IMG/VR virus record: IMGVR_UViG_3300032327_001202
Coordinates: 18,828 to 82,827 of that record
Reading direction: 5' to 3' (one strand)
Length of the DNA stretch: 64,000 bases
Origin: a virus
Lineage: Duplodnaviria; Caudoviricetes
Part shown: piece after piece, positions 5,108-62,690 of the stretch
Layout of the letters: every line of letters begins with the position of its first letter
Position numbering within the stretch: the first letter of the stretch is position 1
Position numbers and translations under genes: made by a program
Notes under the pieces: generated by a model
Told to the model about the DNA's origin: nothing
Databases searched by the model: none
What the model saw: only the letters and a program-made list of their open reading frames with translations

Positions 5108-5136
5108 AAAATATAATATATACATTACAAATACAT

Positions 5137-5495: not shown

Positions 5496-5500
5496 CTAAT

Positions 5501-5526: not shown

Positions 5527-5538
5527 AATTAAAATAAT

Positions 5539-5958: not shown

Positions 5959-6277
5959 AGTAAGTTTAACCGCAAAAGAACAAATAATTAAATTAAAAAG
6001 TGAAGAACCTAATACAGGACAATACCTTAGAGTAGGGGTAAAGGGTGGAGGATGTAGTGGATTATCATACATCTTAGAATTTGATGATATATATGATAAA
6101 AAAATTGATGAACTTTTTGAAGATAATGATATAAAAATTATATGTGATAAAAGAAGTCTTCTTTATATATTTGGAACCGAACTAGTATTTTCAGGTGGTT
6201 TAAATGGTAAAGGATTCGAGTTTATCAATCCCAATGCAAGTAGAACTTGCTCTTGTGGAGAAAGTTTTTCAGTTTAA
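5951..6277 (+). CDS. iscA: HesB/IscA-family Fe-S cluster assembly accessory protein
   Basis: LRVGVKGGGCSGLSY and C-terminal CSCGESF; likely start MIKVS at 5951 rather than 5906. Confidence 0.95.
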   Translation: MIKVSLTAKEQIIKLKSEEPNTGQYLRVGVKGGGCSGLSYILEFDDIYDKKIDELFEDNDIKIICDKRSLLYIFGTELVFSGGLNGKGFEFINPNASRTCSCGESFSV

Positions 6278-6289
6278 AAAAATAATAAT

Positions 6290-6466
6290 ATGAACAAAGA
6301 TAAAATAGATTTATATAATTTTTTAGTAGATAACCCTTACTTTTCTAAGGAATATGTTATGGGAAAGATATTTAATTTTTCTTTTTCTGATATACAATAT
6401 ATCAATAATTTAGAACTAATGGAAAAAAGAAATAAAAAAATAGATGATTTATTAAATGAAGATTAG
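6290..6466 (+). CDS. 58-aa ORF (not in track): portal C-terminal-like peptide plus RNKKIDDLL
   Basis: Manual translation MNKDKIDLYNFLVDNPYFSKEYVMGKIFNFSFSDIQYINNLELMEKRNKKIDDLLNED*; PYFSKEYVMGKIFNFSFSDI aligns with portal PYFHVDFLVDKIMKLTPEEI. Confidence 0.75.
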   Translation: MNKDKIDLYNFLVDNPYFSKEYVMGKIFNFSFSDIQYINNLELMEKRNKKIDDLLNED

Positions 6467-6617
6467 TATTGATGAAATAATAACTTATGATATAGTAGCA
6501 TCTCCAGCACTTGGAAGTGCTAAACTAGTATATGATGAAGAGCTTAAACGAAAGAAAATATTAGAGGATATGGAGAGGAGAAATAAGATTTTAGATGAGT
6601 TATTAAAAGAGGATTAA
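6456..6617 (+). CDS. 53-aa ORF (not in track): prohead-protease-like peptide plus RNKILDELL
   Basis: Manual translation MKISIDEIITYDIVASPALGSAKLVYDEELKRKKILEDMERRNKILDELLKED*; TYDIVASPALGSA vs protease TYDIVADPGFASA (9/13 identical). Confidence 0.8.
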   Translation: MKISIDEIITYDIVASPALGSAKLVYDEELKRKKILEDMERRNKILDELLKED

Positions 6618-6638
6618 ATTAATTTAATCCTCTTTTTT
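6605..6638. terminator. Perfect 32-bp palindrome / bidirectional terminator
   Basis: AAAAGAGGATTAAATT-AATTTAATCCTCTTTT between convergent ORFs. Confidence 0.75.
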
Positions 6639-6641
6639 ATT

Positions 6642-6947
6642 TTAATATTCTTTTAAATCTGAGATTTCTAAATCATCTAATACAGATATTGCTTTATCTA
6701 ATCCACTTTTCCAATTAGGCCATTTTCTTCTATGCATTTCAACTGCTTCTTCTAAATCATGATATAAATCATCATTTCCAACTAAGTTATAATATTTATT
6801 TTTAAGTTTAGAAACTAATTGATATAAAACAGCATTATCAGTTTCATTTTTTAAGGCTTCAATTTCGGCTTTAAGTTCAGGAATAAACTCTTTTTTTAAT
6901 TGCCAATTACCTTCAAATAAATGAAGATATTTTAATTTTTTTTCCAT
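6642..6947 (-). CDS. Hypothetical protein with CTS-like leader
   Basis: 101-aa ORF starting MEKKLKYLHLFEG. Confidence 0.7.
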   Translation of the reverse strand: MEKKLKYLHLFEGNWQLKKEFIPELKAEIEALKNETDNAVLYQLVSKLKNKYYNLVGNDDLYHDLEEAVEMHRRKWPNWKSGLDKAISVLDDLEISDLKEY

Positions 6948-6949
6948 GT

Positions 6950-7618
6950 TTATTTTAATTTTTTATCAAGGATTTTAACTAATCCTTCCCCTATTGTAAA
7001 ATGTATATTTTTTAATACATCGCTTTTTATATTTAAAAAATCTTCTAAAAAAGTAAAGTTAAAATCATATTCATATTCTTCATCTATTTTTACTTTTTTA
7101 ATACTAAGTTTTAGTTCATAAGAATCATTTACACTAATAACAAAATCAAATTGTAAATCTTCACATTTTGTAATCTTAAACTTAGGCTCGTATATAACAT
7201 CAAATATAGTATAATCAGTTCTATTAACTGTTTTAAGATAATGATTTAAAAGTAATGCTGGTGTTTCAACAAAATCTGATAATAATTGTAAATCTTTTCC
7301 AAAATTATTTGATTTTATAATCTTCTTTAATTTATATTCTAATTCATTTATATCTTTAAACAATTCTTTATGATAAACACAATTTATATTATATAAGTAA
7401 GTAAAATAATTTTCTGTTATTTCAGTTTTTTCTAAATTTGTTTTAAATATAAATTTAGTATGTAAAACAAATGTTTCTTCTATTAATAAACTATGAATAG
7501 ATATAACTAAATTATAATAATCATCATGTTTTTCATATACATTTTTATATGTTAAAAAACGTCCTTCTGTAAAAACGGATTTAAATAGTTCCTCTATTTC
7601 AGATATTTTAATTGCCAT
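6950..7618 (-). CDS. Hypothetical protein
   Basis: 222-aa ORF co-oriented and closely spaced with neighbours. Confidence 0.75.
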   Translation of the reverse strand: MAIKISEIEELFKSVFTEGRFLTYKNVYEKHDDYYNLVISIHSLLIEETFVLHTKFIFKTNLEKTEITENYFTYLYNINCVYHKELFKDINELEYKLKKIIKSNNFGKDLQLLSDFVETPALLLNHYLKTVNRTDYTIFDVIYEPKFKITKCEDLQFDFVISVNDSYELKLSIKKVKIDEEYEYDFNFTFLEDFLNIKSDVLKNIHFTIGEGLVKILDKKLK

Positions 7619-7619
7619 A

Positions 7620-8372
7620 TTATTTAAATTGTTTATCGTAAGTTTTCTTTCTTAGATTAATAAGTTTTTCTATATATTTATTTCTTCTCAATAACTTAAA
7701 TACTAAGTTTTCTAATGAATACTCACCATCTTTTTCTATACCAGATTTTCTACCATCTTTAATTTTTTTCCAAATTTTCTTCCATTTAAACTGAAAATTT
7801 TCATAATTAGCCACATTACCTGATTCTATTTCTAAATCATCTATACTATCCATTATATCTTCTGCTTTAAGTTTAATTAAATGATAATCAATTTCAAAAT
7901 TCTTTCTATCTGGTTTTTGTACCCAATAGTTATATAGTATAGAATATACTCCACTATTTTTTCTTATCTTTTCTATGTCTGTTTGGCAGTTAAGTTCTAA
8001 TTCATATCCTGCTATTATTATATCATGATCTTCATTCCATAATTTAGAATATGTTTTAAGATAATTTTGAACTAAATTTTCATCGTCATTAATTTCTGTA
8101 AAATCTAAAACTATATGTAAATCTATATCTGACCATTCTGACCAATTATAATTGGCTAATGAACCTGTGAATATAATATCTTTAACCTTAAAATCTATTT
8201 TTAAATCATCTTTTATTTCATCAATAAAATCATTCCCTATTTGGAGTAATTCTTCTTTTACTTCATGATTTAATTTAAATTTATGCCATATTTTCGTATT
8301 TAAATAATCTTTTAACTTAAATGATTTTAATGGAGTTAAATCCTTTTTATGGTCATTATATTTTTTTATCAT
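7620..8372 (-). CDS. Pol-beta-superfamily nucleotidyltransferase
   Basis: FTGSLANYNWSEWSDIDLHIV = GS...DxD motif; likely start MIKKYN at 8372 (track start 8468 overlaps the divergent gene). Confidence 0.8.
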   Translation of the reverse strand: MIKKYNDHKKDLTPLKSFKLKDYLNTKIWHKFKLNHEVKEELLQIGNDFIDEIKDDLKIDFKVKDIIFTGSLANYNWSEWSDIDLHIVLDFTEINDDENLVQNYLKTYSKLWNEDHDIIIAGYELELNCQTDIEKIRKNSGVYSILYNYWVQKPDRKNFEIDYHLIKLKAEDIMDSIDDLEIESGNVANYENFQFKWKKIWKKIKDGRKSGIEKDGEYSLENLVFKLLRRNKYIEKLINLRKKTYDKQFK

Positions 8373-8424
8373 AACTAAAACTTTTTTGTGTATAAGTATA
8401 TATATTAAAAAATAATACCTAATT

Positions 8425-8949
8425 ATGTTAGATGAAAAATTTCCCGATAGAAAAGAAATTAAATACACTTATCAGAAAAGTTTAATTGAATCTATTAAAT
8501 CTATAGATCTTACCGACTATGATTATAATAAAGCAAATGATGAAGAATTTGCACCGAGAACTAAGATAACTCAAAAACAAAAAATTTATTTTTGGATTAG
8601 ACTTTATTTAAATGAAGAAATAGAGATTGAACCAAATGATATAGTTAATATAGTTTATACTCCATTAAATGAAGTATTAGAAACTACTTTTGTTTGCTAT
8701 TCAAAACCTTATTCATCAAAAGTTGATGTTGATAATTTAACTGAATATAATCCTGAAGATGATAAAAAAGTTTTATGTTTAATGGTAGATCAATCACGTA
8801 TAAATGAAAATTCGGATGATATACCTTTTATCAGATCTTTATTTAAAATAAGTAAATATTATGAAGATAGAGTTATGAGAAAAGGAGAATTAAAATTCAT
8901 TCTTGAGAAAAATGATACAGAATTAGAATATTTTAGTATTGGATTTTAA
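8425..8949 (+). CDS. Hypothetical protein
   Basis: 174-aa ORF followed by a bidirectional terminator. Confidence 0.7.
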   Translation: MLDEKFPDRKEIKYTYQKSLIESIKSIDLTDYDYNKANDEEFAPRTKITQKQKIYFWIRLYLNEEIEIEPNDIVNIVYTPLNEVLETTFVCYSKPYSSKVDVDNLTEYNPEDDKKVLCLMVDQSRINENSDDIPFIRSLFKISKYYEDRVMRKGELKFILEKNDTELEYFSIGF

Positions 8950-8951
8950 TT

Positions 8952-8984
8952 AAAAAAGAGGACTTATTTAGTCCTCTTTTTTTT
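8952..8984. terminator. Bidirectional terminator
   Basis: AAAAAAGAGGACT-TATTT-AGTCCTCTTTTTT between convergent genes. Confidence 0.75.
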
Positions 8985-9461
8985 ACCTCTTTTATTTATT
9001 GGAGGTGTATAATTTGTTGATGTGGATTGGGTAGATGGCGTAGTGTAAGCATAATCAAAATAAAATAAATTAGGGCTGGAACCTGTTTTATATAATTCAT
9101 GTTCTTCTTCTTTAAATTCCTCAAATTCTTTGTTTTCTAAAATAGAATCTAATTTTCTATCACGATTAATGGTAGCAACTTCTCGTTTAATTCTTTCTTT
9201 TTCCTCCTCTGAATTACCAAAACCTTTCATAGGGTTAACAGTAACTAAATCTATCCCTATTGTTTGAGCGGCTATTTTTTTAGCAATTGGTAATAAACTT
9301 GGAAAAGATTCATTTGACTGTGTCCCTACTAATGTAGTATCCATATTTATTTCATTTTTTAAATGAAGATTAGCATATTCGGTCATCCAGTTATTTACTA
9401 CAGATTGTGTAGATGATACATGATTCAAATCCCATTTATCTATTTTTATATTTGGTTTCAT
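8964..9461 (-). CDS. Truncated paralog of the major capsid N-terminal region with an inserted RDRKLDSIL helix
   Basis: WMTEYANLH vs MCP WMAEYAEYH; LLPIAKKIAAQTIGIDLVTVNP vs LLPVAMKIAAQTIGLDLVAVKP (17/22); LFYFDYAY vs LVYVDFQY after the insert. Confidence 0.85.
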   Translation of the reverse strand: MKPNIKIDKWDLNHVSSTQSVVNNWMTEYANLHLKNEINMDTTLVGTQSNESFPSLLPIAKKIAAQTIGIDLVTVNPMKGFGNSEEEKERIKREVATINRDRKLDSILENKEFEEFKEEEHELYKTGSSPNLFYFDYAYTTPSTQSTSTNYTPPINKRGKKKRTK

Positions 9462-9464
9462 ATT

Positions 9465-10568
9465 TTATATTATTTTTTCTTCTAAAATTATTTCTATATT
9501 TTGTTCATAAGAAATTTTTAATAATTCTTTTTTATTTTCCAAAACCCAATTATCTTTTAATTGGTCATTTCTTTTTACAACCTCAAATTGCTCTTCACCA
9601 CCAAAAAATTCTCTTGGCTCATAATGTTGAATACCATTAAACTCTATAAATAACCCCTTTTTAGGTAAATAAAAATCAAATCTATATGTAGAATTACCTA
9701 TTTTTTGTTTATATTCTTTAATGTATTCTATACCTTTTATATCTAACCAATTCTTTATTTGACGTTCTCCTTTTGATGAAGAACAATTAGGACAACCACA
9801 TTTATGATGTATAATATAATTAGGTTTAGCACTCCAAATATAATCACATACTTTACATTTATGTTTTAAATAAAAAAGAGACCCTATATATTTTTCACCA
9901 TCTACTAATTCTATATCATTTGGAAGAAGAGATAAATATTTTGTATGAGAAAATTTTCTACCAGAACAAGATGAACACCCTAATACTATATTAGCTATAT
10001 TTTTAGGCGTAGTGTTAAATTTCTCACCACATTTTAAACATTCAAAATCATGATTTTCTCTAAAATTAGTGTAATTTCCTATTAATTTTATATTCCTTTC
10101 TATTAATAATTCATTAAATTTATTAATATAGTTATATGATTTTTTGCTTAATAAATTTTTATCCTTTTTACATTCACAAATATATTTTGTGATTTGTTTA
10201 GGTGTTTTATTTATTATTTCATTACATATTTTACATTCAAAATTTATATACGTATTAGTGTTAATATAATTATCTACTCTAATAAAATCTAAATCTTTTA
10301 TTCTTAAATCAAATTCTTCATTTGTTATTTTTCTACCTAATGAAGAAAAACTATCGTTTGTTTCTTTTTTACATTCACATAATGTTCGATTATATAATTT
10401 AGGCTTTTTCATACTTTTTTTACCACATAACTTACATTCAAATTCTATTGGTGTTTCTGCATTAATATAATTACCGATTCTTATATAATCAGAATCTTTA
10501 ATTTTTAAATCAAAATCATTATTAGTAAATGCTTTTGGTCCTGACTTTTCGTTCTTTTTTATATACAT
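9465..10568 (-). mobile_element. Free-standing homing-endonuclease-like gene (CxxC repeats plus C-terminal PD-(D/E)xK/Vsr-like domain)
   Basis: Repeated FECKxC units, GCPNCSSSKGE, RFDFYLP..FIEFNGIQH; directly downstream of the capsid gene. Confidence 0.8.
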
Positions 10569-10620
10569 AATTTATATATTTTCTTATTATATTTTTATTT
10601 CATGAATAGTTCATGAAATA

Positions 10621-10649
10621 AAAAAACCTCCCTTGAGGGGAGGTTTTTT
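10621..10649. terminator. Terminator downstream of the major capsid gene
   Basis: AAAAAACCTCCC-TTGAG-GGGAGGTTTTTT. Confidence 0.8.
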
Positions 10650-10667
10650 GTATTCTAATTTATTATA

Positions 10668-12410
10668 TTAGTTAAGGTAGCCATTAGCATCATTAACGTA
10701 GATAGTCATAAATTGTTTTTGTGGGAAGAAACCTAATTCAGCCACAGCATATCTTGATCTTAAAATCATTCTTGGAGCAAATGTTGCTTCTGACATGATT
10801 GAGATAGATTGTGCCATGAGGAATGGCACGAAACAGATACCTGGTTGATCAGGATTGTTTTTACGTCCGATTAAGATTCTGTTGTCATTGTATTTCATGT
10901 AAGGATCTACGTAGATAGTGATATCACCGATTTGACCTACAGGGTACATTTGACCGTTTGTGTTTAATTTAGATTTAAGTGGGTTAATTGTGTAACCTGC
11001 AACATCCATTAAAGCTGCTGCTAATCCACCATTTGTTACCGCATATTGTGCTGGTCCAACACGTCCTTCAGTTGCGATGTAGTTAGAAGCATGTACCATT
11101 TTAGTGATAAGCTTTCTTTGTACAGCGTGTGTAGTTTCACCACCTGGTCCTGCTTGAACATAAAGAGTATCTAAGTCAAATATAGTTTGTCCAGAGATGT
11201 TAGCGTTAGCATTTAAACCTGTGTATAAAGGAGCAGTTTGTCTGTTTATATTACCCATATCAAATACTTTAGCAATAATTTGCTTAGAGATAGTTTGAGA
11301 AAGTTCGTTTACAAGGATTGATTCCATTTTTTGAACGATATCCATACCAGTGTTAGCTTTGATATCTTCAATTTCTGTTCTACGTAATGCAGAACTTACT
11401 TCTACTGTACCAACTGTAATTGATTTAGAAGAAATTTTTGGTCCAATTGCACCTGCATATGTGCTTTCTTCTTCTTGACGAGCCATTGGGTATTGCCCAC
11501 CATTACCATTAAAGTTTGTAACATATCCTGGTAATTGATCTTCAAGAGCAGATACTAAGCTTATGCTTATAGCATTTGAGTTAGTAGACTGTCCAAATAA
11601 GTAGTTAATTTCTGAAACCATTGAACCACCTGCTGTAGCACCTGTAGTTGAAACGTTAAATGAGTTGTTTGCTTGATTTAAGCCATAAACAACACCACCA
11701 CCATATGCACCACCTGCCGCATTTGATTCTTTGTAAGCTCTGAATATAGGCTGTCCATCAATACGAGAGAAACCTAAGAACTCTAAGTAACCAAATTTGT
11801 TAGTTGGTTCAGTTGTAGTACTAGATACTGAAGTTGATGCAGTGAAACCTGTCCAAATTCTTGTACCAAATGCTAAACCACCTTGGTTTTGTTGAATACC
11901 TGCAGTAGTTAAAGCGCTATTAATAGCTGTATTTAATGAAGCACTTAAACCTGTAGAAGTTAAAGTAGCATTCCAAGCAATTTTGAATACTTGAGGTTTT
12001 GTGTTAAAGTTTGAAAGATTTAAATCGTCATATTGAAAATCAACATAAACTAAATCAATCTTTGGACCTGGAGTTGGCTTTACAGCTACTAAATCAAGAC
12101 CAATTGTTTGTGCAGCAATTTTCATAGCTACTGGTAATAGGTTTTGTCCTAAATCACCTGAACCTATGTTTGATGAACCATAGTTTGCACCAATTGTTGT
12201 ACCTGGGTAAGTACCAACTTGTGGAGCTAAAACAGCACCTAAACCACCTGTAGAAGCATTAAGGTAAGCGTTTTCGTTTATTGCATGGTATTCAGCATAT
12301 TCTGCCATCCATGAATATTTTTCTCTGTCCTCTTTGTTAACACCAATGTTTTCTAAAATTGGAGTCCATTTGTTAAGAGCTTTTTGTAAGTCAATTCTAA
12401 CTTGTGACAT
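10668..12410 (-). CDS. gp23: Major capsid protein (T4 gp23-like)
   Basis: KWTPILE N-terminus, EDIKANTGMDI..E..L..E helix, IYVDPY, F.P.M.L.SRYAV C-terminal motif; adjacent to protease and portal. Confidence 0.9.
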   Translation of the reverse strand: MSQVRIDLQKALNKWTPILENIGVNKEDREKYSWMAEYAEYHAINENAYLNASTGGLGAVLAPQVGTYPGTTIGANYGSSNIGSGDLGQNLLPVAMKIAAQTIGLDLVAVKPTPGPKIDLVYVDFQYDDLNLSNFNTKPQVFKIAWNATLTSTGLSASLNTAINSALTTAGIQQNQGGLAFGTRIWTGFTASTSVSSTTTEPTNKFGYLEFLGFSRIDGQPIFRAYKESNAAGGAYGGGVVYGLNQANNSFNVSTTGATAGGSMVSEINYLFGQSTNSNAISISLVSALEDQLPGYVTNFNGNGGQYPMARQEEESTYAGAIGPKISSKSITVGTVEVSSALRRTEIEDIKANTGMDIVQKMESILVNELSQTISKQIIAKVFDMGNINRQTAPLYTGLNANANISGQTIFDLDTLYVQAGPGGETTHAVQRKLITKMVHASNYIATEGRVGPAQYAVTNGGLAAALMDVAGYTINPLKSKLNTNGQMYPVGQIGDITIYVDPYMKYNDNRILIGRKNNPDQPGICFVPFLMAQSISIMSEATFAPRMILRSRYAVAELGFFPQKQFMTIYVNDANGYLN

Positions 12411-12490
12411 ATTTTTTAATTTTTTTTATTAATCTATATATTAAATGCTAAAAGTCTCTTTTTGCTATTTTTATAGATTTGTTTGTTTTT

Positions 12491-14695
12491 TTAAATGTTT
12501 TTGAATCTTTCTAAGATTGATTTGAAATCTGAATCAGATAGTTTATCTTCTTGTATTAAACTGTCATGAGAAATCATTTTTTTAGTTGATTCATTCTTTT
12601 TTAAGTTTCTAGTTAACCAAAAATGTTCAATTTTAGCTTCTGAATCCAATTCAGGATATAGTTTAGCTTGTGAAAGAATTGATTTTTTAGAACTTTCATT
12701 TGTTACTTCCCAAATTGATTTTATATTTTCTGGCATCAATCTGATTAGTCTTTCTTCTAATGATTCATTTTTAATAGAAAGTGCTTCTTGTATTAATTTT
12801 ATAACTTCTGAACTTGTGAAATAACTCTTTTCGTTTATGTAAAGTTTTACTTGTTCTTGCTCTTCGTTTGTTAAGCTATAATAGCTATCAACTTGAGACT
12901 TGTTTAAAAATTTTAAGAAATGTAGATCGTTTGTTTCAGAAACTTTACGTTTTCTAGCTTCTTCGATTAATAAATCTATTTTTTTACTTAAATCTGAATC
13001 TGTATTTTTATTTTCTAAGTAGTCTTCGTCTGCTTTAGATACATCTGGTAAACCTTCTAATTTTACTTCTTTACCTAATAATTCATCTTTGAAATCTGCT
13101 TCATTTGGAACCGCAGTATCAACTTTTTGTTCTTCTGGTAATTCAACTTCTGTTAATTCAGTATAATCTAAAGAAACTGGAGTTGCTTCATCAGCTTCAC
13201 CCGCTTTTTCAACACCATCTTCACCATGAAGTTCATCCTCACCACCTTCTAAATAGTTATCTGATTTATTATCAACATCATTTTCACCAAAACCATATTC
13301 TTCTAAAGTAGGAATAAGATTTGATTCATTACTTTCAAATAATTTAGTACCATTAACTTTTTCAGAAATTAAACCTGTATAAGATACAGCTTTATCTAAG
13401 TTTTCAGCAATGTATTGAGAATAAGAAATGTTATCATCAAGGTGTTCTGCTATATATTCAGAATATTTAATATTACCTTCTAAGTTTTCAGCGATATACT
13501 CAGAATAAGCAATATTACCATCTAAGTTTTCAGCTAAATATTCAGCATAAGAAATATTTCTATCTAAGTTTTCAGCTAAGTATTCTGCATAAGAAATATT
13601 CTTATCAACATTCTCAGCAATATATTCAGAATAAGAAATGTTTTTGTCTAAATTTTCAGCGATGTATTCAGAGTAAGAAATGTTTCTATCTAAATTTTCA
13701 GCGATGTATTCAGAATAAGAAATGTTCTTATCTAAGTTTTCAGCAATATATTCTGCATAAGCGATATTTTTATCTAAGTTTTCAGCAACATATTCAGAAT
13801 ATTTAATTGATTTGTTTAAGTTTTCAACTAAATAATCGTTATGTTCGATTAATCTATCAGTTGTATCTTTAAGAGATTTGTTCTCAGAAACAACAACTTG
13901 AATTTTTTCTGCTAAATAATCTAAGTATTTAACAACTTGAGAATTAGTTTTATTTAATTCTTCATAGTAGTTTAAAAGTTTTTCTAATTTAACTGGTTCT
14001 AAATTACCAGATTTAAGAGCACTTTTAACTTCTTTTTTAGTTGCAGCAATTTCATTAACTATATATTTCGAATAGTCTGACAATTGATCTTTCGTTACGA
14101 ATTCATTTTTGTTCATGTTAAATAATTCATTTATTTTTGATTCATTTGATACTTCATATATTCTGAAGTTAGCATCATTTGAATAATTTAAAGACTCATT
14201 TATAGAAGACATTCTCGCAGAAGCAAATCCCGGATCTGCAACTATATCATAAGTAAATAATTTTTTTAGTGATACTGTACCATCAGCTTCTGTAATACCA
14301 GCAGCTCTTGAAGATACAAATATAGGGCAACCATCATCAACTAAAGCCTTAGCTTCTTTTCCCCAATAGGTATTTAATAATTTAATTTGTCCTTCAACTA
14401 CATTTTTTTCTTTAACATAATATGCGGTTTTGATTAAATGGGATGCACGGGATAGTGAAGTGTCAAAGACGTCGGGGTGGTCAAACTCACCATAAACTAC
14501 TCCCATAGTAGAAATCCTGCTATTAAGTTCTTCTAAACAAGGCAAGAATCTTTCAGGAGTATATACTCTTTCATTCCTATTTTTAACCATAAACTCAGTA
14601 AAAGTACCTCCTAAAAGATAATCTTTTCTAGCATCTACACCTTCGTTCATTTTTAAAGGATTTGTATTATTTTCAATGATTAATACTGGCTTCAT
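12491..14695 (-). CDS. gp21: Prohead protease (gp21-like) fused to a scaffold-like region
   Basis: NRNERVY, YGEFDHP, VSSRAAG, TYDIVADPG protease motifs in the N-terminal ~170 aa; coiled-coil, repeat and acidic C-terminal region. Confidence 0.9.
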   Translation of the reverse strand: MKPVLIIENNTNPLKMNEGVDARKDYLLGGTFTEFMVKNRNERVYTPERFLPCLEELNSRISTMGVVYGEFDHPDVFDTSLSRASHLIKTAYYVKEKNVVEGQIKLLNTYWGKEAKALVDDGCPIFVSSRAAGITEADGTVSLKKLFTYDIVADPGFASARMSSINESLNYSNDANFRIYEVSNESKINELFNMNKNEFVTKDQLSDYSKYIVNEIAATKKEVKSALKSGNLEPVKLEKLLNYYEELNKTNSQVVKYLDYLAEKIQVVVSENKSLKDTTDRLIEHNDYLVENLNKSIKYSEYVAENLDKNIAYAEYIAENLDKNISYSEYIAENLDRNISYSEYIAENLDKNISYSEYIAENVDKNISYAEYLAENLDRNISYAEYLAENLDGNIAYSEYIAENLEGNIKYSEYIAEHLDDNISYSQYIAENLDKAVSYTGLISEKVNGTKLFESNESNLIPTLEEYGFGENDVDNKSDNYLEGGEDELHGEDGVEKAGEADEATPVSLDYTELTEVELPEEQKVDTAVPNEADFKDELLGKEVKLEGLPDVSKADEDYLENKNTDSDLSKKIDLLIEEARKRKVSETNDLHFLKFLNKSQVDSYYSLTNEEQEQVKLYINEKSYFTSSEVIKLIQEALSIKNESLEERLIRLMPENIKSIWEVTNESSKKSILSQAKLYPELDSEAKIEHFWLTRNLKKNESTKKMISHDSLIQEDKLSDSDFKSILERFKNI
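13390..13850 (-). repeat. Coding tandem repeat, about 10-11 copies of 42 bp (14 aa: NISYSEYIAENLDK)
   Basis: Directly visible in the translation and DNA of the protease/scaffold gene. Confidence 0.95.
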
Positions 14696-14831
14696 TAATT
14701 TTTAAGTTATTTTGTAGTATTATATATAAAAAAATAATACCTCCTTTTTTCTAAAAAAATCAATTATTTTTATGACCTGGATTTTTTATAGAAAAACTTA
14801 AAACTTAAAATTTTTTTAATATATATTATCT

Positions 14832-15236
14832 ATGTATAAAATTAATTTTGGTGATGAGAAAGTTTTTTTAAATTATTTAAAAGGTTTTGAAAATAAGTAC
14901 CATAAAAGACAAAAAGTATTAAATGAGATTTTAGAAATTAATGATAAAGATGATGAAGCATTAAGCTACTGGGATTTTACTGATAATAGTATAATATATG
15001 GTCAATTTTTTGATAAAAGATATGATAAAGATACATCTTTAAGTAATGTTTCACATTATGTTAAAAACATAGAAAAAATAAATGGGGAATATTTCGCAGA
15101 AATAAAAATATTAACTACTTATTGGGGTATAGCATTATTAGATTTAATTAATGCTGGAATAAAATTTCATTTAGAATGTGTCTATCATACTTATGAAAAT
15201 AAAAAAATAATTAGACTAGATATAAATGATTATTAG
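14832..15236 (+). CDS. Degenerate (likely inactive) paralog of the prohead protease domain, with an RQKVLNEIL motif
   Basis: IIYGQF..DTSLSNVSH..IKILTTYWG..LINAG aligns with protease VVYGEFDHP..DTSLSRASH..IKLLNTYWG..LVDDG; the HP and SSR motifs are absent. Confidence 0.75.
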   Translation: MYKINFGDEKVFLNYLKGFENKYHKRQKVLNEILEINDKDDEALSYWDFTDNSIIYGQFFDKRYDKDTSLSNVSHYVKNIEKINGEYFAEIKILTTYWGIALLDLINAGIKFHLECVYHTYENKKIIRLDINDY

Positions 15237-16342: not shown

Positions 16343-16359
16343 ACATTATATATTAAAAT

Positions 16360-16387
16360 AAAAAAATCCTCTTAAAGAGGATTTTTT
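16360..16387 (-). terminator. Terminator after the portal gene
   Basis: AAAAAATCCTCT-TAA-AGAGGATTTTTT. Confidence 0.75.
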
Positions 16388-16394
16388 AGTTATA

Positions 16395-18128
16395 TTAAAA
16401 TTCAAACTCACCACCGCCAGCTTCACCACCAGCTTCAGGTGCAGGAGGATTTTCACCACCAGCTTCAGGTTCCGAAGCAGCTTCACCACCTTCAGGAGGA
16501 GTTTCACCACCCGCTTCAGGAACAGGAGCTTCAGGAGAAGGTCCTGCTTCTCCACCACCGCCTCCACCTTCTGGCATTCCACCTCCAGCAGCAGTTGATG
16601 ATCCAACCCCTTTTGATTTAATCCAATAAGCCTTATTTTCTTCAATTTCTTCGGGAGTTAATTTCATAATTTTATCAACAAGGAAATCAACATGGAAATA
16701 AGGTTGTTCACCATTCATAATTCCTAATAAAGTAGTCATTATGGTAGCTCTAGATTCCATATTTGCTAATTTTTTCCATTCTTCAAAAATCTGATTTGTA
16801 TTGAAAATAACATCAACTTGGTTAAGAAATACTTCATCATGTCTTAATTCAGGAAATTCCATACACATTTGAAGTTTAATTGGTTTAACAATTAGTTCTT
16901 TAATAATTGAACGTAAACGGCTAATAAAATTACCAAAGGTTATTTCATCTCTTGTCATTTCATTTGCAGCAGTCACTAACTGACCCCCACCATTTTCTTT
17001 TTCAAATCTTTGGAAAGGTATCTTACTTGCTCTTTTCAAACAATTCATAAACCAATTTAACATATTATCTTCATTAAGATTATGTCCTTGTGGAGAAATC
17101 AATTCCATATTTGGTGTACCTTGATCACCTTCTGGAAACCATATTTGTTTATTATATGGTAAGTGTTTACTACCACTAATAGTTAATGTACCTAATGAAT
17201 CATCAAATTCTACATCTTCAGAATAATCAGCTATTAATTGTGCAATTTGTTCCTCAGCTCTTTGTTTTGGTAAACCTTTAATAGGTATTGTAAACTTTTG
17301 ATAAACCATCGCATTAACTACGTTAAACATAATTCTTGTTTGTTCCATAATCTTTAATTGATTATATGGTTTAATAAGTCCTTCTACATAAGAAGTTTCG
17401 GAATAATCATGTTGAGTAGAATATGATATAAATACTATTTGCGAATCTAAGAAAATTCTTCTTAAAGCAGGATCTTCTGGATATTGTATCCAAATATTTC
17501 CTATACTTGGTTCATAAGCTGGAACAAGAGTTTCAGGTCTCATTCTATTAAAACTAATAATATTCTTTTTTGTATCATCCCATATAATTTCAACTGCGGC
17601 ATAACCATCAATTAAAAAATCTTTAGTCATATTCCAAGCAGTAATACCATCAGAAAAACCAAAACGACTGTATATTTTTTCAAAAAATTCTTGATATTTA
17701 TCTCGTATATCTTGTGAATAACTATTATTTAAAGGACTTGGAGAACAGAAATCTTTATCTTCATCATACACAATAATTTCATCGGCTAACACAGATACAA
17801 ATTCACGTATTTCATCCTTAATAGAATATTCTCTTAATATTCTTCTTTTATCTGAATACGCTTTATCTAAATAAGGAATTGATTTTTTGTTTAAAACTTG
17901 AGCGACTGCTCTTTGAGAAAAGAAAGCATACATAGAATCCGCTCTTTGAGCAAGAGGGTCTTCATTCATACCGACACCGATAGAATTTCTAAGTATCATA
18001 TCTTCATATTTTAGACCTAACCCTGAAAGGGATCTAAGAAGACGATTAAATATACCTTTATTTTCAACAGCAGAAGGTATAATATTTGGGTTTGTATTGC
18101 TATTTATTGGATTATATGATCCTGGCAT
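16395..18128 (-). CDS. gp20: Portal protein (T4 gp20-like) with Gly/Pro/Glu-rich C-terminal tail
   Basis: 577 aa in the head module; KRASKIPFQR, EMTRDEITFGNFISRLR motifs typical of gp20. Confidence 0.9.
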   Translation of the reverse strand: MPGSYNPINSNTNPNIIPSAVENKGIFNRLLRSLSGLGLKYEDMILRNSIGVGMNEDPLAQRADSMYAFFSQRAVAQVLNKKSIPYLDKAYSDKRRILREYSIKDEIREFVSVLADEIIVYDEDKDFCSPSPLNNSYSQDIRDKYQEFFEKIYSRFGFSDGITAWNMTKDFLIDGYAAVEIIWDDTKKNIISFNRMRPETLVPAYEPSIGNIWIQYPEDPALRRIFLDSQIVFISYSTQHDYSETSYVEGLIKPYNQLKIMEQTRIMFNVVNAMVYQKFTIPIKGLPKQRAEEQIAQLIADYSEDVEFDDSLGTLTISGSKHLPYNKQIWFPEGDQGTPNMELISPQGHNLNEDNMLNWFMNCLKRASKIPFQRFEKENGGGQLVTAANEMTRDEITFGNFISRLRSIIKELIVKPIKLQMCMEFPELRHDEVFLNQVDVIFNTNQIFEEWKKLANMESRATIMTTLLGIMNGEQPYFHVDFLVDKIMKLTPEEIEENKAYWIKSKGVGSSTAAGGGMPEGGGGGGEAGPSPEAPVPEAGGETPPEGGEAASEPEAGGENPPAPEAGGEAGGGEFEF

Positions 18129-20257: not shown

Positions 20258-21946
20258 TTATAATAAAAAAATCCACTTTTTATTGCCACCATTATATACT
20301 CTATAATATCCTAATTCTAGCATAATTTCTTCTTCAGTTTTATTTATATCATAACCCATTTTGACTAACTTAGATTTTCTCCAATTAAATCTATGTTCTC
20401 TTTTTTTATCAATTACATACCAATATCCAGGTTTAGATGTATGTAAATAAGTAAAACCTAATTTTTCATACATATTTCCATTAGAAATTAAATTATCTGA
20501 ATAAGTTTCTATTCTAATTGGAATCCATTTATCAATAAAATATTTTAATAATTTGGAAGCTCCACCAATTATATTAGTGTTTATTATATTACAATACCGT
20601 GTTAACTCATAAACATGTTCTTGATTTTTTCCACCTAAAGGAAGTCTTAATTTAGAAAATGTCATTAAATTAACTAATTCATTATTATAATATAACCCAA
20701 TTCTTATTGATGATTTACAATCACCTTGAAAATGATTCCTATCTAAAAAATTTTTAGAAGTTGTATAATCAACTTCTTTAATTACACATTTACGTGCTCC
20801 TATTTTATATGTTAAGTTTAATTTATTTAGAATATATGATTTACAGATTTCTTTTTTAATAACCCAATCATCTTCCCATATAGTAAATAAATTAATATTA
20901 TTTTTTTCTGCTAATTGTTTTTTTATTAAATGATATTCTTCTTTTTTAAATTTCTCACTATGCCAATATAGCCCATTAAATTCAAACCCTAATTTTAATT
21001 CTGGTAAATAAATGTCAATTTCATACGGATTAATATAATCTTTAGTATTTACTATAATTTCTCCATTATAATTTTCTTTAATAAAATTATAAATATCAAT
21101 TTGTTTAATACTTGAACTTTCTGATATAGGAAAGCAATTAGTACATATACTAGTATTATTAGTGACTCTATAATAAAATTGATAAGTTAATATCTCAAAA
21201 TTAGTATTACATTTTTTACAAAAAAATTTTAAATATGTAGTTATATTTTTATTAAAACCATTAAATTCATAATCATTTTGATTAATTTTATCCATTATTC
21301 TTTTTTTATAATCAGAATAAAAAACATCAATTGATTTATCATGTATTTCTTTTATCATCCAATGATGTTCAACTCCATATTTTTCAATGGATGTTTTTTT
21401 AAAATTTTCTTTAAAATCACTTATTTTAAAACTTTCTATTCTTTTTTTATTTAATTCTTCTGATTTATTGGGGTTATCTACACCCCAATTTTTTAATAAA
21501 GTTTGTTTAGATTTTTCTTGAGTTTTTTCTAAACACATAGCAGAATTAACCCCATATTTTTCTAAATTTGTTTTTATAATTTTTTGTTTTATTTCTAATG
21601 ATTCAGCAGGGGTTTTAGTTCCATATTTAACAATAGATTTTTCTTGTTTAGATTTTTTTATATTTTCATCTGAACTTATACATTTATTAGAGCAATAAGT
21701 TAAATATCCTATTGTTGAGTTTTTATACTTTACTTTATTACTACAATTATTATTTTTACATTTAGGAACTTCTTTTAAATTATTGACAGAGATAAAAACT
21801 TTTTCTTTAAAAGGTAAATCTCCTAATTCATTATTTATACAATAATCAATAATATATTCATATTCCTTTGGATATGTTTTTAACAAAGATTTTTCTTTAC
21901 ACATACTTCCAGAAGGATCACTTTTTTTAAAAATTTCTAAATCCAT
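20258..21946 (-). mobile_element. Hef-like homing-endonuclease-type gene (KYG repeats, PD-(D/E)xK domain, C-terminal GNAT-like domain)
   Basis: KYGVNS/KYGVEH repeats, EIDIYLP..GFEFNGLYWHS, then FLDRNHFQG..ELTRYC..GGASKLL..YEKLGF; downstream of the tail sheath gene. Confidence 0.75.
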
Positions 21947-31421: not shown

Positions 31422-32066
31422 TTAATCCTTATTTTTAAGGATTTTATCAATCATATCATTTAAACTTCTTGCATCAACAACTTGTTTATCATCTTCAACA
31501 ACCTTGTTAATTTCTTCCTCTTGGATTAATTCTTCTTTAACTTCTGGTTCAATTGAAGTAGTTACATTTGTTAAACCTAAATCTTTACGAATTTCTTTAT
31601 AGAATTTTTCTAATTCAGTTCTTTGAGTAGAAATAAATTTAATATTTTCTCTCATCTGACCTACTGTTTGATTCACAACTTCATGCATTCTAGCACTATT
31701 ATCACCATTATCAATTTGTCTTAACTGTGTTAAATAGTTCTTTCTTGTCATTTTACCCAAGAACATAGTTTCTGCATATATTGAAGCATCCTGCCTCATT
31801 TTTTGTTTAATATATCCATGTTCCATTACTACTTTAGAATCTCCTAAATATAAATCAACTAATGATTCTAACATATCTGATGCTTCAGTATTTGCTGTAG
31901 TAAGATCTAAATCATAATTATATATTTCTATTTCACCTAAATCGGGTAAATCATCTTCTGTTGCAAAGTATTTTGTTAAATCTAGCCCTTTGCTAGTTTC
32001 TTGAATTCTTTCAAACTCCTCTTTTATAGACTCCATTTTGACGTCTTTTTCTGATTTTTTTGCCAT
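31422..32066 (-). CDS. Hypothetical helical protein
   Basis: 214-aa ORF divergent from the terminase; no recognised motif. Confidence 0.7.
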   Translation of the reverse strand: MAKKSEKDVKMESIKEEFERIQETSKGLDLTKYFATEDDLPDLGEIEIYNYDLDLTTANTEASDMLESLVDLYLGDSKVVMEHGYIKQKMRQDASIYAETMFLGKMTRKNYLTQLRQIDNGDNSARMHEVVNQTVGQMRENIKFISTQRTELEKFYKEIRKDLGLTNVTTSIEPEVKEELIQEEEINKVVEDDKQVVDARSLNDMIDKILKNKD

Positions 32067-34270
32067 ATTTTTATGTATATGATATTTATTTATATATATT
32101 AAAAAATAATTTTTCTTTTATGGCTAAAAGCACAAAGATAGATGAAGAAGAATTAAGGAAATTTGTCTTTAACTCAGAACTAGTTGAAGAATTAACGCAG
32201 AAAATAAATGACGGTATTGTATTAAAACGTTATCAAAATCCTTGGTTCAAAAATGAAATAGGAAATAGGAGAGCAGGTATAACCTTCGCAATGACTCCTG
32301 AAGAAATCGCAGAATATATTAAATGTAAAACAGATATAAAATACTTCGCACAAAAATATTGTAAAATTAAAGTTGAAGATGGTAGTATTAAAAATCTAAC
32401 ACTCAGAGATTATCAAATAGATATATTAGAATTATATCAAAATAGAAAATCTATTCTATGTGGTAGTCGTCAGATAGGTAAAACTATTAATGCCGCAATT
32501 ACCATGTTACACTTTGTAACATTTAATAATGATAAAAATATCATGATTGTGGCTAATATAGCCAGTACAACAATTGAAATTGTAGATAAAATTAAATCTA
32601 TATATGTTCACCTTCCATTCTTCCTTAAAGTAGGTATTAAAAACTGGAACCAAAGAACAATGATATTTGAAAATGGTTGTCGTATTAAAACAGCTGCAAG
32701 AAGTAGAACTCCCGCTATCGGTTTTACGATAGACTTTTTATACTTAGATGAATTTGCACACATTCCTTCTAATATTATCGAACCTTATTATCAAGCAGTT
32801 TATCCCGTAGTATCTGCGGTAGAAAACTCAAAAATAATTATTACATCAACCCCTAATGGAATGAATCTATTTTATAGATTATTAACCGATGCGGAACGCC
32901 CTGAAGGCGATCCTCAAAAAAATCAGTTTAAGGCATTAAGAATATATTGGTATCAAGTACCAGGAAGATTCGTAACATTTTATAGATTAAACCCTGTTAA
33001 ATTATTTAAATTTGGTTTAACAGAAGAATCTTTATATGAACAAGTTATAGCTAACTTTTCACACTTAACTAAAGTAGAAAAAAAGTTCGATGCTGAAATA
33101 GAAAAAGAAACTATAGCAATTCATAATAATGAACTATGTCCTGAAGAATTAACAAAATCTTTTCAATTTTATGACAACAATAATGTATTAACACCTATTC
33201 AATTAGCATGTGACGTTTCTACATGGAAAGAAGATTCTATAAAAAATATAGGTGGAGAAGATGCATTTAACCAAGAATATGGTTTACGTTTTATTAACGC
33301 AACTCGTTCTATATTAAGTGAAAGTGTGATAGATACGCTAATAAAAGGAAAAAAGCATTTTGAGTATAGAGATATACCTATGTTTGATGATAAATTAAGA
33401 TTTAGTTATAGAGACTTAGCATGGGTTGATAATGATACATTTAATCATGCAAATCGTAAAGATATTAAAGGTATAATGTCGATTGATATATCTGAGGGTT
33501 TAGGTCAAGATTATACTATTATAAATATATTTAGAATAGCGTTAAAACCTATAGAATTAATTGAAGCTCAAAAATCTAATTTATATGATTTTAGTGATTT
33601 CTTTTGGTTAGAACAAATTGGATTATATAGATCTAATTTAATTTCTGTTAAACAATTATCAGATTTATTTTATATGTTAGCTTTTGAATATTTTGATTAT
33701 GAAAAGTTTAGAGTAGTATTAGAAACGAATACTTATGGTAGTGAGTTTTTAGCACATTTACCACATGTATTTGATGGTAATAATAATTATGGTTCTGGTA
33801 TATTTTTTAGATATAAACACAGGATGGATTCTAGTGAAGAAAAAGTAGGATTAAAATTAGGAGATAATAAAAATCTTTTAGTTAAAGATTATCAAGAAAA
33901 CATGAATAAAAGAAATTTTCACATAACTAATGAAGATAATATTAAAGAAATAACCACGTTTGTTAGACACATAACATCAGCAGGTAATGTTAGATATGCT
34001 GCGGATATAGGTAAAGATGACTTAGCCATGTCATTAGTAAATGCTTCATCTATATTTAGTCGTTATGATTATAAAGAGATGATACAAGATTTTAGTAAAG
34101 AGTTGCCAAGTGATGTATTAAATTATATTAATAATATAATAAATAATTCAAGTGAAGCTAAAGAAGTTTCGGATTATTCTGCATTAATAAATGTTAATCG
34201 TAGAAGAAAAAATGCTACTTCATATACTTATGAAAAAAGTATAGATTGGCATGGTAAAAAATATTATTAA
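32060..34270 (+). CDS. gp17: Terminase large subunit (gp17-like)
   Basis: LRDYQ, SRQIGKT (Walker A), LYLDEFAH (Walker B), TSTPNG, nuclease IDISEG..DY and DDLAMS; start probably MAKSTK at 32120. Confidence 0.95.
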   Translation: MPYFYVYDIYLYILKNNFSFMAKSTKIDEEELRKFVFNSELVEELTQKINDGIVLKRYQNPWFKNEIGNRRAGITFAMTPEEIAEYIKCKTDIKYFAQKYCKIKVEDGSIKNLTLRDYQIDILELYQNRKSILCGSRQIGKTINAAITMLHFVTFNNDKNIMIVANIASTTIEIVDKIKSIYVHLPFFLKVGIKNWNQRTMIFENGCRIKTAARSRTPAIGFTIDFLYLDEFAHIPSNIIEPYYQAVYPVVSAVENSKIIITSTPNGMNLFYRLLTDAERPEGDPQKNQFKALRIYWYQVPGRFVTFYRLNPVKLFKFGLTEESLYEQVIANFSHLTKVEKKFDAEIEKETIAIHNNELCPEELTKSFQFYDNNNVLTPIQLACDVSTWKEDSIKNIGGEDAFNQEYGLRFINATRSILSESVIDTLIKGKKHFEYRDIPMFDDKLRFSYRDLAWVDNDTFNHANRKDIKGIMSIDISEGLGQDYTIINIFRIALKPIELIEAQKSNLYDFSDFFWLEQIGLYRSNLISVKQLSDLFYMLAFEYFDYEKFRVVLETNTYGSEFLAHLPHVFDGNNNYGSGIFFRYKHRMDSSEEKVGLKLGDNKNLLVKDYQENMNKRNFHITNEDNIKEITTFVRHITSAGNVRYAADIGKDDLAMSLVNASSIFSRYDYKEMIQDFSKELPSDVLNYINNIINNSSEAKEVSDYSALINVNRRRKNATSYTYEKSIDWHGKKYY

Positions 34271-60157: not shown

Positions 60158-61279
60158 TTATTTTTTATTTTTATAATTCTCTTCATATATTCTTAATATA
60201 TTTCCAAACTCATCTAATACTCCTGATTTAATTTTTTTATTATCCCATTCCATATTTGAAATATATCCTTGGATTATATCTTTATAATCATTTGATATTG
60301 TCAATACATCACCCTCATTTAAAATACTTGTTATATCTACTTGAGCAACTTCTTCTGTTTTTGAAGTAATATCATCTATATATTCTACACTCGTAAAATT
60401 ACCAGTTTCCAATACACCTTCAATTTTTCTTCTTAACTTTCTATTATTGATTAGTAAACTGTTAGAAATAAATAAATCAATCCAATCTTTTTTATCAATC
60501 TTATCCAAACTATCTATATCATCCTCTTTTCTTAAATAAATTTTCTTAAATTTAGGTGATACATTATTTGGTACAAATTTTTCAGTATCTAAATCAGTAT
60601 CTAAAATAAAAATACCCTTTTGATTATCTATATCATTTCTATCCATCTCATGTACAGATCCAACAAAAGTAAAGTTTTTATTTCTTTGTAGAATATGTAT
60701 ATGTCCTGAATATACCCCTTTATACCCATCAAAATCCTCTACATCTATTTTATGTAGGTTTTTATGTGCTACTGAATTTAAATGCATTCTTGCACCATTT
60801 AAATCAGAATGACAGAATAAAAAATCACTACCTGAGTTTTCTTTAAGAACTTCTACTTGATCACTTTTCTTTTCAACCCAAGGCATCATCAAAATAGATT
60901 TATTATTAAATTCTATTCGTTCAGGTTTTTCATAAATACTAACATTAGGAATATGTTTGAAACTTTTCAATGAGTTTATATCATTTGTAGATTTTGTATA
61001 TATATCGTGATTACCTATTAAAACATGTACAGGACAAATAGAAGTCATACGTTCTAATATATCTTGAGCATAATTTAAGATATTAATAGGAACTACGTCT
61101 CTGTTATCAAATAAGTCTCCTAATTGAACTATTATATCATCTTTATCTAATTCTCTTTCCATTAAAGGGAAAAGGAAGGTTTCACAATATTCTTGTGAAA
61201 CCTTAAACCATTTATCAACTTTATTAGGAAATCCAAGAGATAGATGGAAATCTCCTATTAAAAATATTTTATTTGCCAT
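60158..61279 (-). CDS. gp47: Recombination nuclease (T4 gp47 / Mre11 / SbcD family)
   Basis: Metallophosphoesterase motifs GDFH, GDLFD, GNHD, CHSD, GHIH. Confidence 0.9.
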   Translation of the reverse strand: MANKIFLIGDFHLSLGFPNKVDKWFKVSQEYCETFLFPLMERELDKDDIIVQLGDLFDNRDVVPINILNYAQDILERMTSICPVHVLIGNHDIYTKSTNDINSLKSFKHIPNVSIYEKPERIEFNNKSILMMPWVEKKSDQVEVLKENSGSDFLFCHSDLNGARMHLNSVAHKNLHKIDVEDFDGYKGVYSGHIHILQRNKNFTFVGSVHEMDRNDIDNQKGIFILDTDLDTEKFVPNNVSPKFKKIYLRKEDDIDSLDKIDKKDWIDLFISNSLLINNRKLRRKIEGVLETGNFTSVEYIDDITSKTEEVAQVDITSILNEGDVLTISNDYKDIIQGYISNMEWDNKKIKSGVLDEFGNILRIYEENYKNKK

Positions 61280-62690
61280 TAAATATGTTTTTTATTTTGT
61301 TAAAAAATTTACTAATTGTAGAAATTTTCTTTTCTTCTTTAACAGGTACAAAAACATCAGTTAATGGAGTTGTTGGTGTGTCTGTTATTAACTCTACCTT
61401 TGAAGTTTCTTTATTTGGTGAAGGGAACCAAATATCTTTTTGATAAGGAATTTGTGTTTTACCATCTAAAATCAATTCTTTTTTATCTTCATCAAACTTA
61501 ACATCTTGTTGATAACTATTAATTAATTCCGCTAAAGCTTGTTTAGCTAACTCAGGATCTGTATTTCCAATAGGTATTGTGAACTTTTGAGAAAAAGTAT
61601 GACTTAATATATTATGACTAAGTATTTTAGAATCTTCAACAATTTCTTCTGTTATCGTAGTTTCTGGTTTAGTTATTTCATAAACATCATCTTCAAATTT
61701 AACCATATTTGGAGTTTCAGGAACTTCTTTAGATTTTGCTAAATATTCATTATATGAAATATCATTAGATGATTTTACATTTCTTAAATCTTCTCCTGTA
61801 CTATATGTTATACCATTGATATTTATAAATTCCTCTTTATTATTAATATACTCAATATTAATTTCAGGTTTTGGTTGTTTACCGACAATATGTGGAGTAA
61901 TATCTTTCAATTTTTCTTTTCTAATAGCTGCCATTTTTTCTATTATTTCTTTGGTATCAGCATTTGGATCTTTTTGTCTTTGTAATAATTCTCTTCTTAG
62001 ATCATGAAAATTTTCAGTTATTTCATTATCAATAGGTTTAATATTATCAAACGCTAAGAATCCATCTTCATTTAGAGAAGTTTCTTCAATAATATTTACT
62101 GATTCTTTAATACCATCTGCTTTGTAATTAATTAATTCTGGATAGTCAGATAATTCTTCTTCTTTGAAGTCATTAGTTATACTAATAATTTCCCAATTTA
62201 ATAATTGTCTATTTCTTTTTATAAACTTTTTTTCTAATTGAAAAGAGCTAGCTAAATCCCAAAGATTTAATTCTTCTATTTTTTGTCTTTCTAATTTATT
62301 AAAACTAACTAAACCAGTTACATTTGCTTTTCTTAAAATAATTTTATTCCAATTAAGATGATCTTGATATTCAGTAATAAAGTCTTTATCAAAATTAAAA
62401 TAAGTATTTAGTGTTAAGTATTGTAAATCATTAGTTTTTAAAAATTCTTTTTCCAAAAGAATTTTAACAAGATTTTGACTACACGTAAAAACTGGTATTA
62501 AATACTCTTTTCCGACAAATGACGGATCTTCAACTAAAGAAGTAATAATTTCTTCAGAAATTTCATATTCTCCAAAAAAATTTGGAGAAGAATTAATTTT
62601 TATTATTAATTCTTTTAAAGTCAACTCTTCTTGGCTTTGAGAATTATCTTTTAAATAATATTTTTCATTATTGAGTGTTATTTTTTTCAT
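61269..62690 (-). CDS. Mosaic protein: Trp-repeat N-terminal region, scaffold-like peptide, and a portal-clip-like C-terminal segment
   Basis: FITEYQDHLNW / NRQLLNWEIIS repeats; NDISYNEYLA; a 68-aa segment 29/68 identical (ungapped, by hand) to this window's portal. Confidence 0.75.
   Translation of the reverse strand: MKKITLNNEKYYLKDNSQSQEELTLKELIIKINSSPNFFGEYEISEEIITSLVEDPSFVGKEYLIPVFTCSQNLVKILLEKEFLKTNDLQYLTLNTYFNFDKDFITEYQDHLNWNKIILRKANVTGLVSFNKLERQKIEELNLWDLASSFQLEKKFIKRNRQLLNWEIISITNDFKEEELSDYPELINYKADGIKESVNIIEETSLNEDGFLAFDNIKPIDNEITENFHDLRRELLQRQKDPNADTKEIIEKMAAIRKEKLKDITPHIVGKQPKPEINIEYINNKEEFININGITYSTGEDLRNVKSSNDISYNEYLAKSKEVPETPNMVKFEDDVYEITKPETTITEEIVEDSKILSHNILSHTFSQKFTIPIGNTDPELAKQALAELINSYQQDVKFDEDKKELILDGKTQIPYQKDIWFPSPNKETSKVELITDTPTTPLTDVFVPVKEEKKISTISKFFNKIKNIFNGK

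Follow-up and report, generated by a model that had tools for sequence, protein, structure and literature searches.

The window analysed here, a stretch of 64,000 nucleotides at the end of an IMG/VR fragment of 82.8 kb (15% complete by estimate), carries close to its end a gene for a protein of 473 aa, stop included (61269..62690, minus strand). This protein is very probably a conserved chimera of a ~0.6-Mb T4-portal-type phage, maintained by selection, in which part of the portal, from the end of stem helix alpha5 through the whole clip, was duplicated and joined to an unrelated helical N-terminal domain, with a repeated strand 1 and a basic amphipathic helix following the copy.

The resemblance between window positions 61385-61589 (minus strand) and a segment of the portal gene, which had been noticed in the original prediction, was reproduced. 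Residues 368-435 of the fusion protein and residues 277-344 of the portal (window 17097-17300) shared 29 of 68 positions in an ungapped alignment, against a best score of 16 among 5000 shuffles of the 68-residue segment. A gapped BLASTP alignment between the fusion protein and its own portal, run as a single comparison, showed 29% identity over 163 residues (E 3e-14). In a translated search of the whole 82.8-kb record the portal was matched at 38% over residues 349-436 (E 1.1e-15), and no clip copies other than the fusion gene and the portal were found in this record. The portal gene itself (577 aa; 16395..18128, minus strand) was identified by Pfam (Portal_T4, E 4.6e-54) and by a HMMER match to T4 gp20 in the PDB sequences. 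A Gly/Pro/Glu/Ala-rich low-complexity tail of about 65 residues ends the portal (window 16395-16600, residues ~510-577), and a 99-aa ORF overlapping it (16346-16645) is probably spurious.

When portal residues 246-498 were aligned by HMMER to T4 gp20 252-501, the segment 277-344 corresponded to about gp20 283-350. The gp20 clip comprises residues 279-358 and is flanked by the stem (255-278 and 359-377); it consists of three strands and helix alpha6 and is exposed on the outer side of the capsid, where gp17 and gp13 dock onto it (PMC4493910). The proposed mapping of the copied region to the clip, where terminase and neck proteins dock, was therefore confirmed by the alignment together with the published domain limits. 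Moreover, a profile made from the non-portal copies alone (A2) matched gp20 269-351 in the PDB sequence set (E 4.5e-7), and an HMM of 47 non-portal cores scored the fusion protein at E 5e-33. Judged from these sequence comparisons, the copied piece is a true homologue of the portal clip and spans essentially all of it, together with the end of stem helix alpha5.

The match to the portal extended at most over portal residues 197-345, with a reliable part at 246-345. The other ~335 residues of the fusion protein were unrelated to portals, as expected from the earlier description of a clip copy at the end of an otherwise portal-unrelated protein, and the complete wing-stem-clip-stem-crown architecture of a dodecameric portal channel was absent. 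A Pfam scan of the fusion protein gave no PF07230 match at E <= 1; the PHROG portal family phrog_213 matched its C-terminal piece (E 1.4e-4, profile positions 274-329), and relatives and small copies reached the PF07230 cut-off only at profile positions ~205-280. The AlphaFold2 model of the module alone was a poor monomer model (mean pLDDT 64), for which T4 portal chains ranked first in Foldseek without reaching significance (E 1.8-9.5) and the VIA structure comparison returned no Z >= 2.

All 18 homologues are built alike (A1): a strongly conserved N-domain is followed by a charged linker of variable sequence, then by the stem-clip copy and a Pro/Thr spacer in which strand 1 recurs, and the protein closes with a basic amphipathic helix. 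The N-terminal domain (residues 1-190; 62121..62690, minus strand) was modelled as all-helical and solenoid-like, with AlphaFold2 pLDDT values mostly of 80-91 over residues 1-180, and in the full-length model residues 1-190 were the only confident part. It was also the most conserved part of the family, with long invariant runs at residues 89-190; the first ~60 residues (window 62510-62690) come in two sequence types among the homologues. The earlier label of a Trp-repeat protein was not borne out, since BLASTP detected no similarity between the halves of the domain and the model was a helical solenoid-like fold. Structure searches returned generic ARM/PPR-like matches only (Foldseek E at least 0.5, VIA Z at most 5.4). 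No Pfam family was matched by this domain, it matched phrog_3532, of unknown function (E 2.9e-4), and a protein atlas search yielded just unnamed viral clusters with scores of 0.90 or less. Shorter homologues of the domain were searched for and none were found.

The charged linker (residues 191-335; 61686..62120, minus strand) had pLDDT values below 50 over most of its length, showed indels between homologues and was predicted to be mostly disordered, with two helices within residues 223-261. An insertion of ~41 residues (278-318; 61737..61859, minus strand; A1 columns 320-360) was present in 7 of the 18 family members. The scaffold-like repeat claimed for this protein (residues 309-318, window 61737-61766) lies in this lineage-specific insertion, which most homologues lack. 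When scored with a matrix built from the ten tandem 14-residue repeats of the protease-scaffold ORF (734 aa; 12491-14695, minus strand), its 14-mer ranked 3 of ~24,600, corresponding to a significance of only ~0.06 for this protein, so the claim was not sustained. With the same repeat as reference, a small ORF on the plus strand (window ~4829-4955) contained three similar units, ranking 1st, 4th and 6th among the non-scaffold 14-mers; this is the window's second case of a partly copied head-assembly protein.

Downstream of the linker, the copy of the alpha5 end (residues 336-367; 61590..61685, minus strand) was recognized because the BLASTP alignment runs into portal 246-276, equivalent to the gp20 stem at 255-278. 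It is followed by the clip-like core (residues 368-436; 61383..61589, minus strand) with strand 1, tip, helix alpha6, strand 2, W-x-P loop and strand 3; in the module model, residues 370-409 reached local pLDDT values of 77-90 and a helix was placed at 379-394. The next segment, a Pro/Thr-rich spacer with a second strand-1 pattern (residues 437-455; 61326..61382, minus strand), reads F-V-P-V followed by acidic and basic residues and is nearly invariant, P442, L443, P449, V450, K451 and E452 being conserved at 90% or more in the fusion family (A1). The protein ends in a basic amphipathic helix (residues 456-473; 61272..61325, minus strand; predicted helix 458-469), whose C-terminal 11-mer has a hydrophobic moment of 0.75 and a net positive charge and is kept in all members of the family.

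The 18 homologues, with identities of 42-89%, all came from metagenomic huge-phage contigs, two of them of ~635 kb. They formed a separate clade in the tree (SH-aLRT 97) and their N-domain occurred nowhere else. The dN/dS ratio on the stem-clip part of the fusion gene was 0.43-0.48. A comparison of the window copy with the copy at locus L005 showed 91% identity in the stem-clip part (dS 0.09) and just 71% in the N-domain (dS 0.39), a divergence contrast that points to recombination within the fusion gene.

With regard to the genomic setting, the fusion gene was located 44 kb from the portal gene and upstream of a gp47/Mre11/SbcD-like nuclease gene (60158..61279, minus strand; Pfam Metallophos E 2e-9; phrog_100 E 7.6e-55), as the original prediction had placed it. 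The junction sequence showed that the 3′ end of the fusion gene overlaps the start of this gene by 11 nt, and the two genes are probably co-transcribed. The gp47-like gene lay directly downstream, with the same 11-nt overlap, in all of the copies examined (L003, L004, L005 and L006), and the nuclease of the window was 94-98% identical to those of L003 and L005. A scan for promoters and terminators found that promoter-like sites were not commoner than in shuffled sequence. The source record stops 39 nt beyond the neighbouring gene, and the upstream context of the fusion gene is thus cut off. Paralogues of DUF7487 (PF24308) were found 1-6 kb from the clip-copy gene in two lineages, namely at the fusion loci L003 (7584-9161) and L005 (89-1672) and in LR756500 (L034 1718-3421 and 12546-14489); the window carries one at 20258-21946. 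A T4-type large terminase (32060-34270), a gp23-type capsid gene and a sheath gene are also present in the window. Its portal shared 72-73% identity with the portals of two uncultured phages, LR756502 (642 kb) and LR745206 (635 kb), the Lak phage portals being more distant relatives.

The view of the clip copy as an isolated oddity did not hold. When the last 144 residues were searched with phmmer against 1.84 billion representatives, 109 matches at E <= 0.001 were obtained; a third or more of these were full portals, a few were portal fragments, and about 45 were small proteins of 60-220 aa with a Met start and a portal likeness confined to the clip core. Besides the 18 fusion homologues there are thus ~45 clusters of small non-portal clip proteins. 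These are complete genes in huge-phage-like contigs, such as P0021, which lies among aminoacyl-tRNA synthetase genes in a 190-kb contig. Pfam and PHROGs see the small proteins just as a local piece of the portal family and contain no separate family of free or fused clip copies. Literature searches on clip paralogues, and on Avs4 together with the clip, returned no description of such proteins, and a survey of jumbo phages mentions the portal and gp40 only (PMC7824862).

Conservation in the non-portal copies was highest in the motifs of strand 1 and of helix-strand 2 and in the W-x-P loop, all of which are conserved in portals as well. A second strand 1 after the clip was observed in about 10 small copies (among them P0019, P0030, P0066, P0072 and the LR756501 copy) and in the whole fusion family. 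The stand-alone mini-proteins (P0019-P0126) share with the fusion protein the core motifs, the frequent terminal basic amphipathic helix and sometimes the second strand 1, and occur in huge-phage genomes, usually as one copy besides the portal. Unlike these free-standing proteins, the fusion protein has 473 aa, a 190-residue unrelated N-domain, a clade of its own and the most acidic tip, and it is a new architecture within the family of non-portal clip proteins. Other composite forms were also found: the metagenomic protein P0098 (338 aa) consists of a complete dihydrofolate reductase (PF00186, E 4e-54), a linker and a C-terminal clip-like module, and in P0050, P0071 and P0114 (442-497 aa) one or two clip-like modules are embedded in larger proteins of unknown family.

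A profile search of five complete relatives of ~0.5-0.7 Mb detected one clear extra copy besides the portal in three, a rearranged remnant in one and weak fragments in another; the helical fusion was present in none of the five. Only the portal, and no extra clip copy, was found in T4, Lak-B5, PTm1, PAU and MA9V-2; the clip match of the Lak-B5 portal (L043, MK250024 411196-411447) reads through two TAG codons, which fits the known stop-codon recoding of Lak phages. In LR756502 (L032 7407-8311), which together with LR745206 is one of the two closest complete relatives, the small clip gene adjoins a T5orf172/MUG113-type gene with an HNH gene nearby, and encodes 153 aa with an aromatic-basic insertion at the tip. 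In LR745206 (L035 7956-8491), too, the small clip gene adjoins a T5orf172/MUG113-type gene; what is left of it here is a rearranged remnant of 84 residues, in which the W-x-P loop, a single strand 1 and the amphipathic tail survive.

A terminal basic amphipathic helix was predicted in 26 of 45 small clip proteins, compared with 6 of 38 neighbour genes and 4 of 27 portals (Fisher p 1e-4, for a criterion set post hoc). Its placement varied between the N-end, the C-end and an insertion at the tip, the aromatic-basic insertion being located exactly at the clip tip in five small proteins. This varied placement suggests a position-independent function such as membrane binding. These helices resemble the membrane-targeting helices of MinD, MreB and Noc, which are likewise short, basic, aromatic-rich, terminal and apparently transplantable, the resemblance being compositional only. 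By analogy with a protein of the same window, a capsid-interior or scaffold address would be an alternative to the membrane for the tail helix of the fusion protein. The protease-scaffold protein (12491-14695), composed of a T4 gp21-like prohead protease N-part, repeats at residues ~295-434 and a long acidic C-part, likewise has a basic amphipathic helix at its C-terminus. By eye, its final dozen residues are similar to the C-terminal helix motif of a mini-ORF family at 3771-15236, and the common helix of this family may be a scaffold/protease-type address.

The comparison with the T4-type gp20 clip (279-358; PF07230; PDB 3JA7 and 6UZC) revealed the same order of elements in the fusion protein, strand-tip-helix-strand-loop-strand. 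In contrast to gp20, the fusion protein has no wing, crown or second stem helix and cannot be a portal. Its additional parts are the repeated strand 1, the amphipathic tail and the N-domain, which is unrelated to portals; its gene is paired with that of a recombination nuclease and lies 44 kb away from the head genes; and its tip is acidic instead of basic. The net charge of the seven tip residues averaged +1.45 in portals (n=33; +3 in the phage's own portal), -0.19 in the small copies and -1.88 in the fusions. The tip was acidic (-1 to -2) in all eight fusion-family members examined, with -2 in the window protein.

The retention of the ring-building positions, the loss of the terminase-contacting tip and the frequent membrane-type helix together favour, tentatively, a membrane-associated module that would pair with portal subunits during vertex assembly and deliver the helical adaptor domain; membrane binding, portal binding and timing are what we infer here, and the reading as a whole is possible rather than probable. 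In the T4 portal the clip provides the only main-chain hydrogen bonds between subunits, one strand pairing with two of the neighbour. Given this strand pairing, a lone clip has an unsatisfied pairing edge. The T4 portal initiator is membrane-bound, and its clip is turned towards the membrane, becoming accessible only once the prohead is released (PMC9958956). According to the proposed mechanism, the tail helix would tether the fusion protein to the cytoplasmic membrane from the inside. Having kept the positions needed for the fold and for the beta-sheet between subunits, and not the basic terminase-docking tip, the clip copy would behave like a neighbouring subunit and pair by its edge with the clips of portal subunits that are still free or in the course of assembly. 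The fusion protein would thereby serve the membrane-bound portal vertex as adaptor or regulator, bringing the binding partner of its N-domain. The dN/dS on the module, the absence of gp40 from five complete relatives and the tendency of the copies to be closest to their own portal also speak for this proposal. Among the points against it are the poor monomer model of the module, the lack of a free clip edge in the finished dodecamer, which would restrict pairing with the portal to assembly intermediates, and the position of the fusion gene beside a recombination nuclease, not head genes.

Such a role would be comparable to that of the T4 portal chaperone gp40, although not its ancestry. The membrane-associated head vertex assembly chaperone gp40 (PF11113) acts on portal assembly at the membrane, and both it and the fusion protein are non-structural, are encoded among replication/recombination genes, have a basic-aromatic C-terminal tail and lack a transmembrane segment. 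However, gp40 has neither clip-like motifs nor sequence similarity to the fusion protein, and its absence is not correlated with the presence of a clip copy. A gp40 homologue was considered and rejected, as the clip HMM scored T4 gp40 at -0.5 bits over the whole sequence. Likewise, PF11113 was not listed in the Pfam scans of the window protein or of six small clip proteins, gp40 itself being detected at E 7.5e-29. The family was also absent from the five complete relatives, with T4 as positive control. The idea that the clip copy is complementary to the absence of gp40 failed: four gp40-less phages with T4-type portals (Lak-B5, PTm1, PAU and MA9V-2) carry no clip copy, so that the copy does not generally replace gp40.

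A second explanation, rather unlikely on balance, is that the clip copy is a recycled alpha/beta module without any link to the portal, a general domain for oligomerisation or tethering that here would serve an N-domain working with the recombination nuclease. It would account for the fusion of the module to unrelated partners (the dihydrofolate reductase of P0098, the larger proteins P0050, P0071 and P0114, and the helical N-domain), for the coupling of the fusion gene to gp47 and not to head genes, and for the lack of conservation of the terminase tip. A single origin of all non-portal copies, compatible with this explanation, was not rejected by the AU test (p 0.24, 67 columns). The relationships of the cores are harder to reconcile with it, since copies were closer to portals (identities of up to 51-58%) than to each other (27-46%) and some shared lineage-specific motifs with the cognate portal, both unexpected for a module without a portal link. 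In the tree (67 columns) the small copies interleaved with huge-phage portals, which, with the shared motifs, suggests at the sequence level a repeated origin of copies from cognate portals. The core identity to the own portal tended to be slightly above that to other portals (39% versus 31-37% here, and 51% in two relatives), the difference being small.

It is unlikely that the clip copy serves as a decoy or regulator tying up the large terminase or a gp13-type neck protein, whereby it would time packaging, keep the terminase with its active nuclease parked at the membrane or sabotage a relative infecting the same cell. The competition for terminase suggested in the original prediction has a precedent, because a free 24-residue gp20 peptide, 288-311, binds gp17 and inhibits packaging in vitro (PMC4493910), and its equivalent lies inside the copied region, within the domain on which both gp17 and gp13 dock. 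Many small family members also retain the portal-like tip pattern of Ser/Thr followed by a basic residue. In T4, the gp20 tip residues N291, M292, R295 and K296 contact gp17 (PMC4493910), and it is precisely this basic tip that is replaced by an acidic one throughout the fusion-family members examined, which argues against simple competition for terminase. The aromatic-basic insertions at the very tip of five small copies also speak against such docking.

An immune decoy, in which the copy would mimic the portal to occupy or mislead host sensors such as Avs4-type STAND proteins, the case raised in the original prediction, or RAZR-type ring sensors, seems equally doubtful, and none of the results pointed to it specifically. 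Portals do trigger several defence systems (10.1101/2025.11.14.688446; PMC13017515), the copies are close in sequence to the huge-phage portals with which they interleave, and they are patchily distributed among relatives, as counter-defence genes often are. Nevertheless, no sensor is known that reads the clip specifically, RAZR assembles round the circumference of the ring (PMC13017515), and binding of the trigger normally activates Avs proteins, so that a mimic could be harmful. A decoy would also leave the membrane-type helix and the highly conserved N-domain unexplained, and dN/dS values of 0.4-0.5 indicate constraint rather than an arms race. A broader version of these ideas, to which we give a similarly low probability, envisages a dedicated class of portal-clip mimics in huge T4-portal-type phages. 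Portable amphipathic helices would direct these mimics to the membrane, in this lineage together with a helical adaptor, and they would capture factors that bind the clip, whether portal sensors of the host or proteins that rival phages use for packaging and for the neck. They would be part of a wider repertoire of "self-mimic" head-protein fragments. Finally, a functionless portal fragment left by duplication or mobile endonuclease activity, which the T5orf172/MUG113 genes beside the small copies of LR756502 and LR745206, the HNH gene near the LR756502 copy and the truncated, rearranged state of the LR745206 copy might suggest, is highly improbable and largely refuted for the fusion gene by a frame intact in 18 homologues down to 42% identity, an invariant second strand and tail helix, a dN/dS below 0.5 and conserved synteny.

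The portal clip is the hub for the packaging motor and then for the neck, and in the T4 head initiator it also forms the side nearest the membrane. Conserved and widespread free or fused clip copies in giant phages therefore point to an unstudied layer of control or conflict at this hub. The fusion protein offers a handle on it: its module of 140 residues is defined, and it contains candidates for a membrane anchor and for an adaptor domain.
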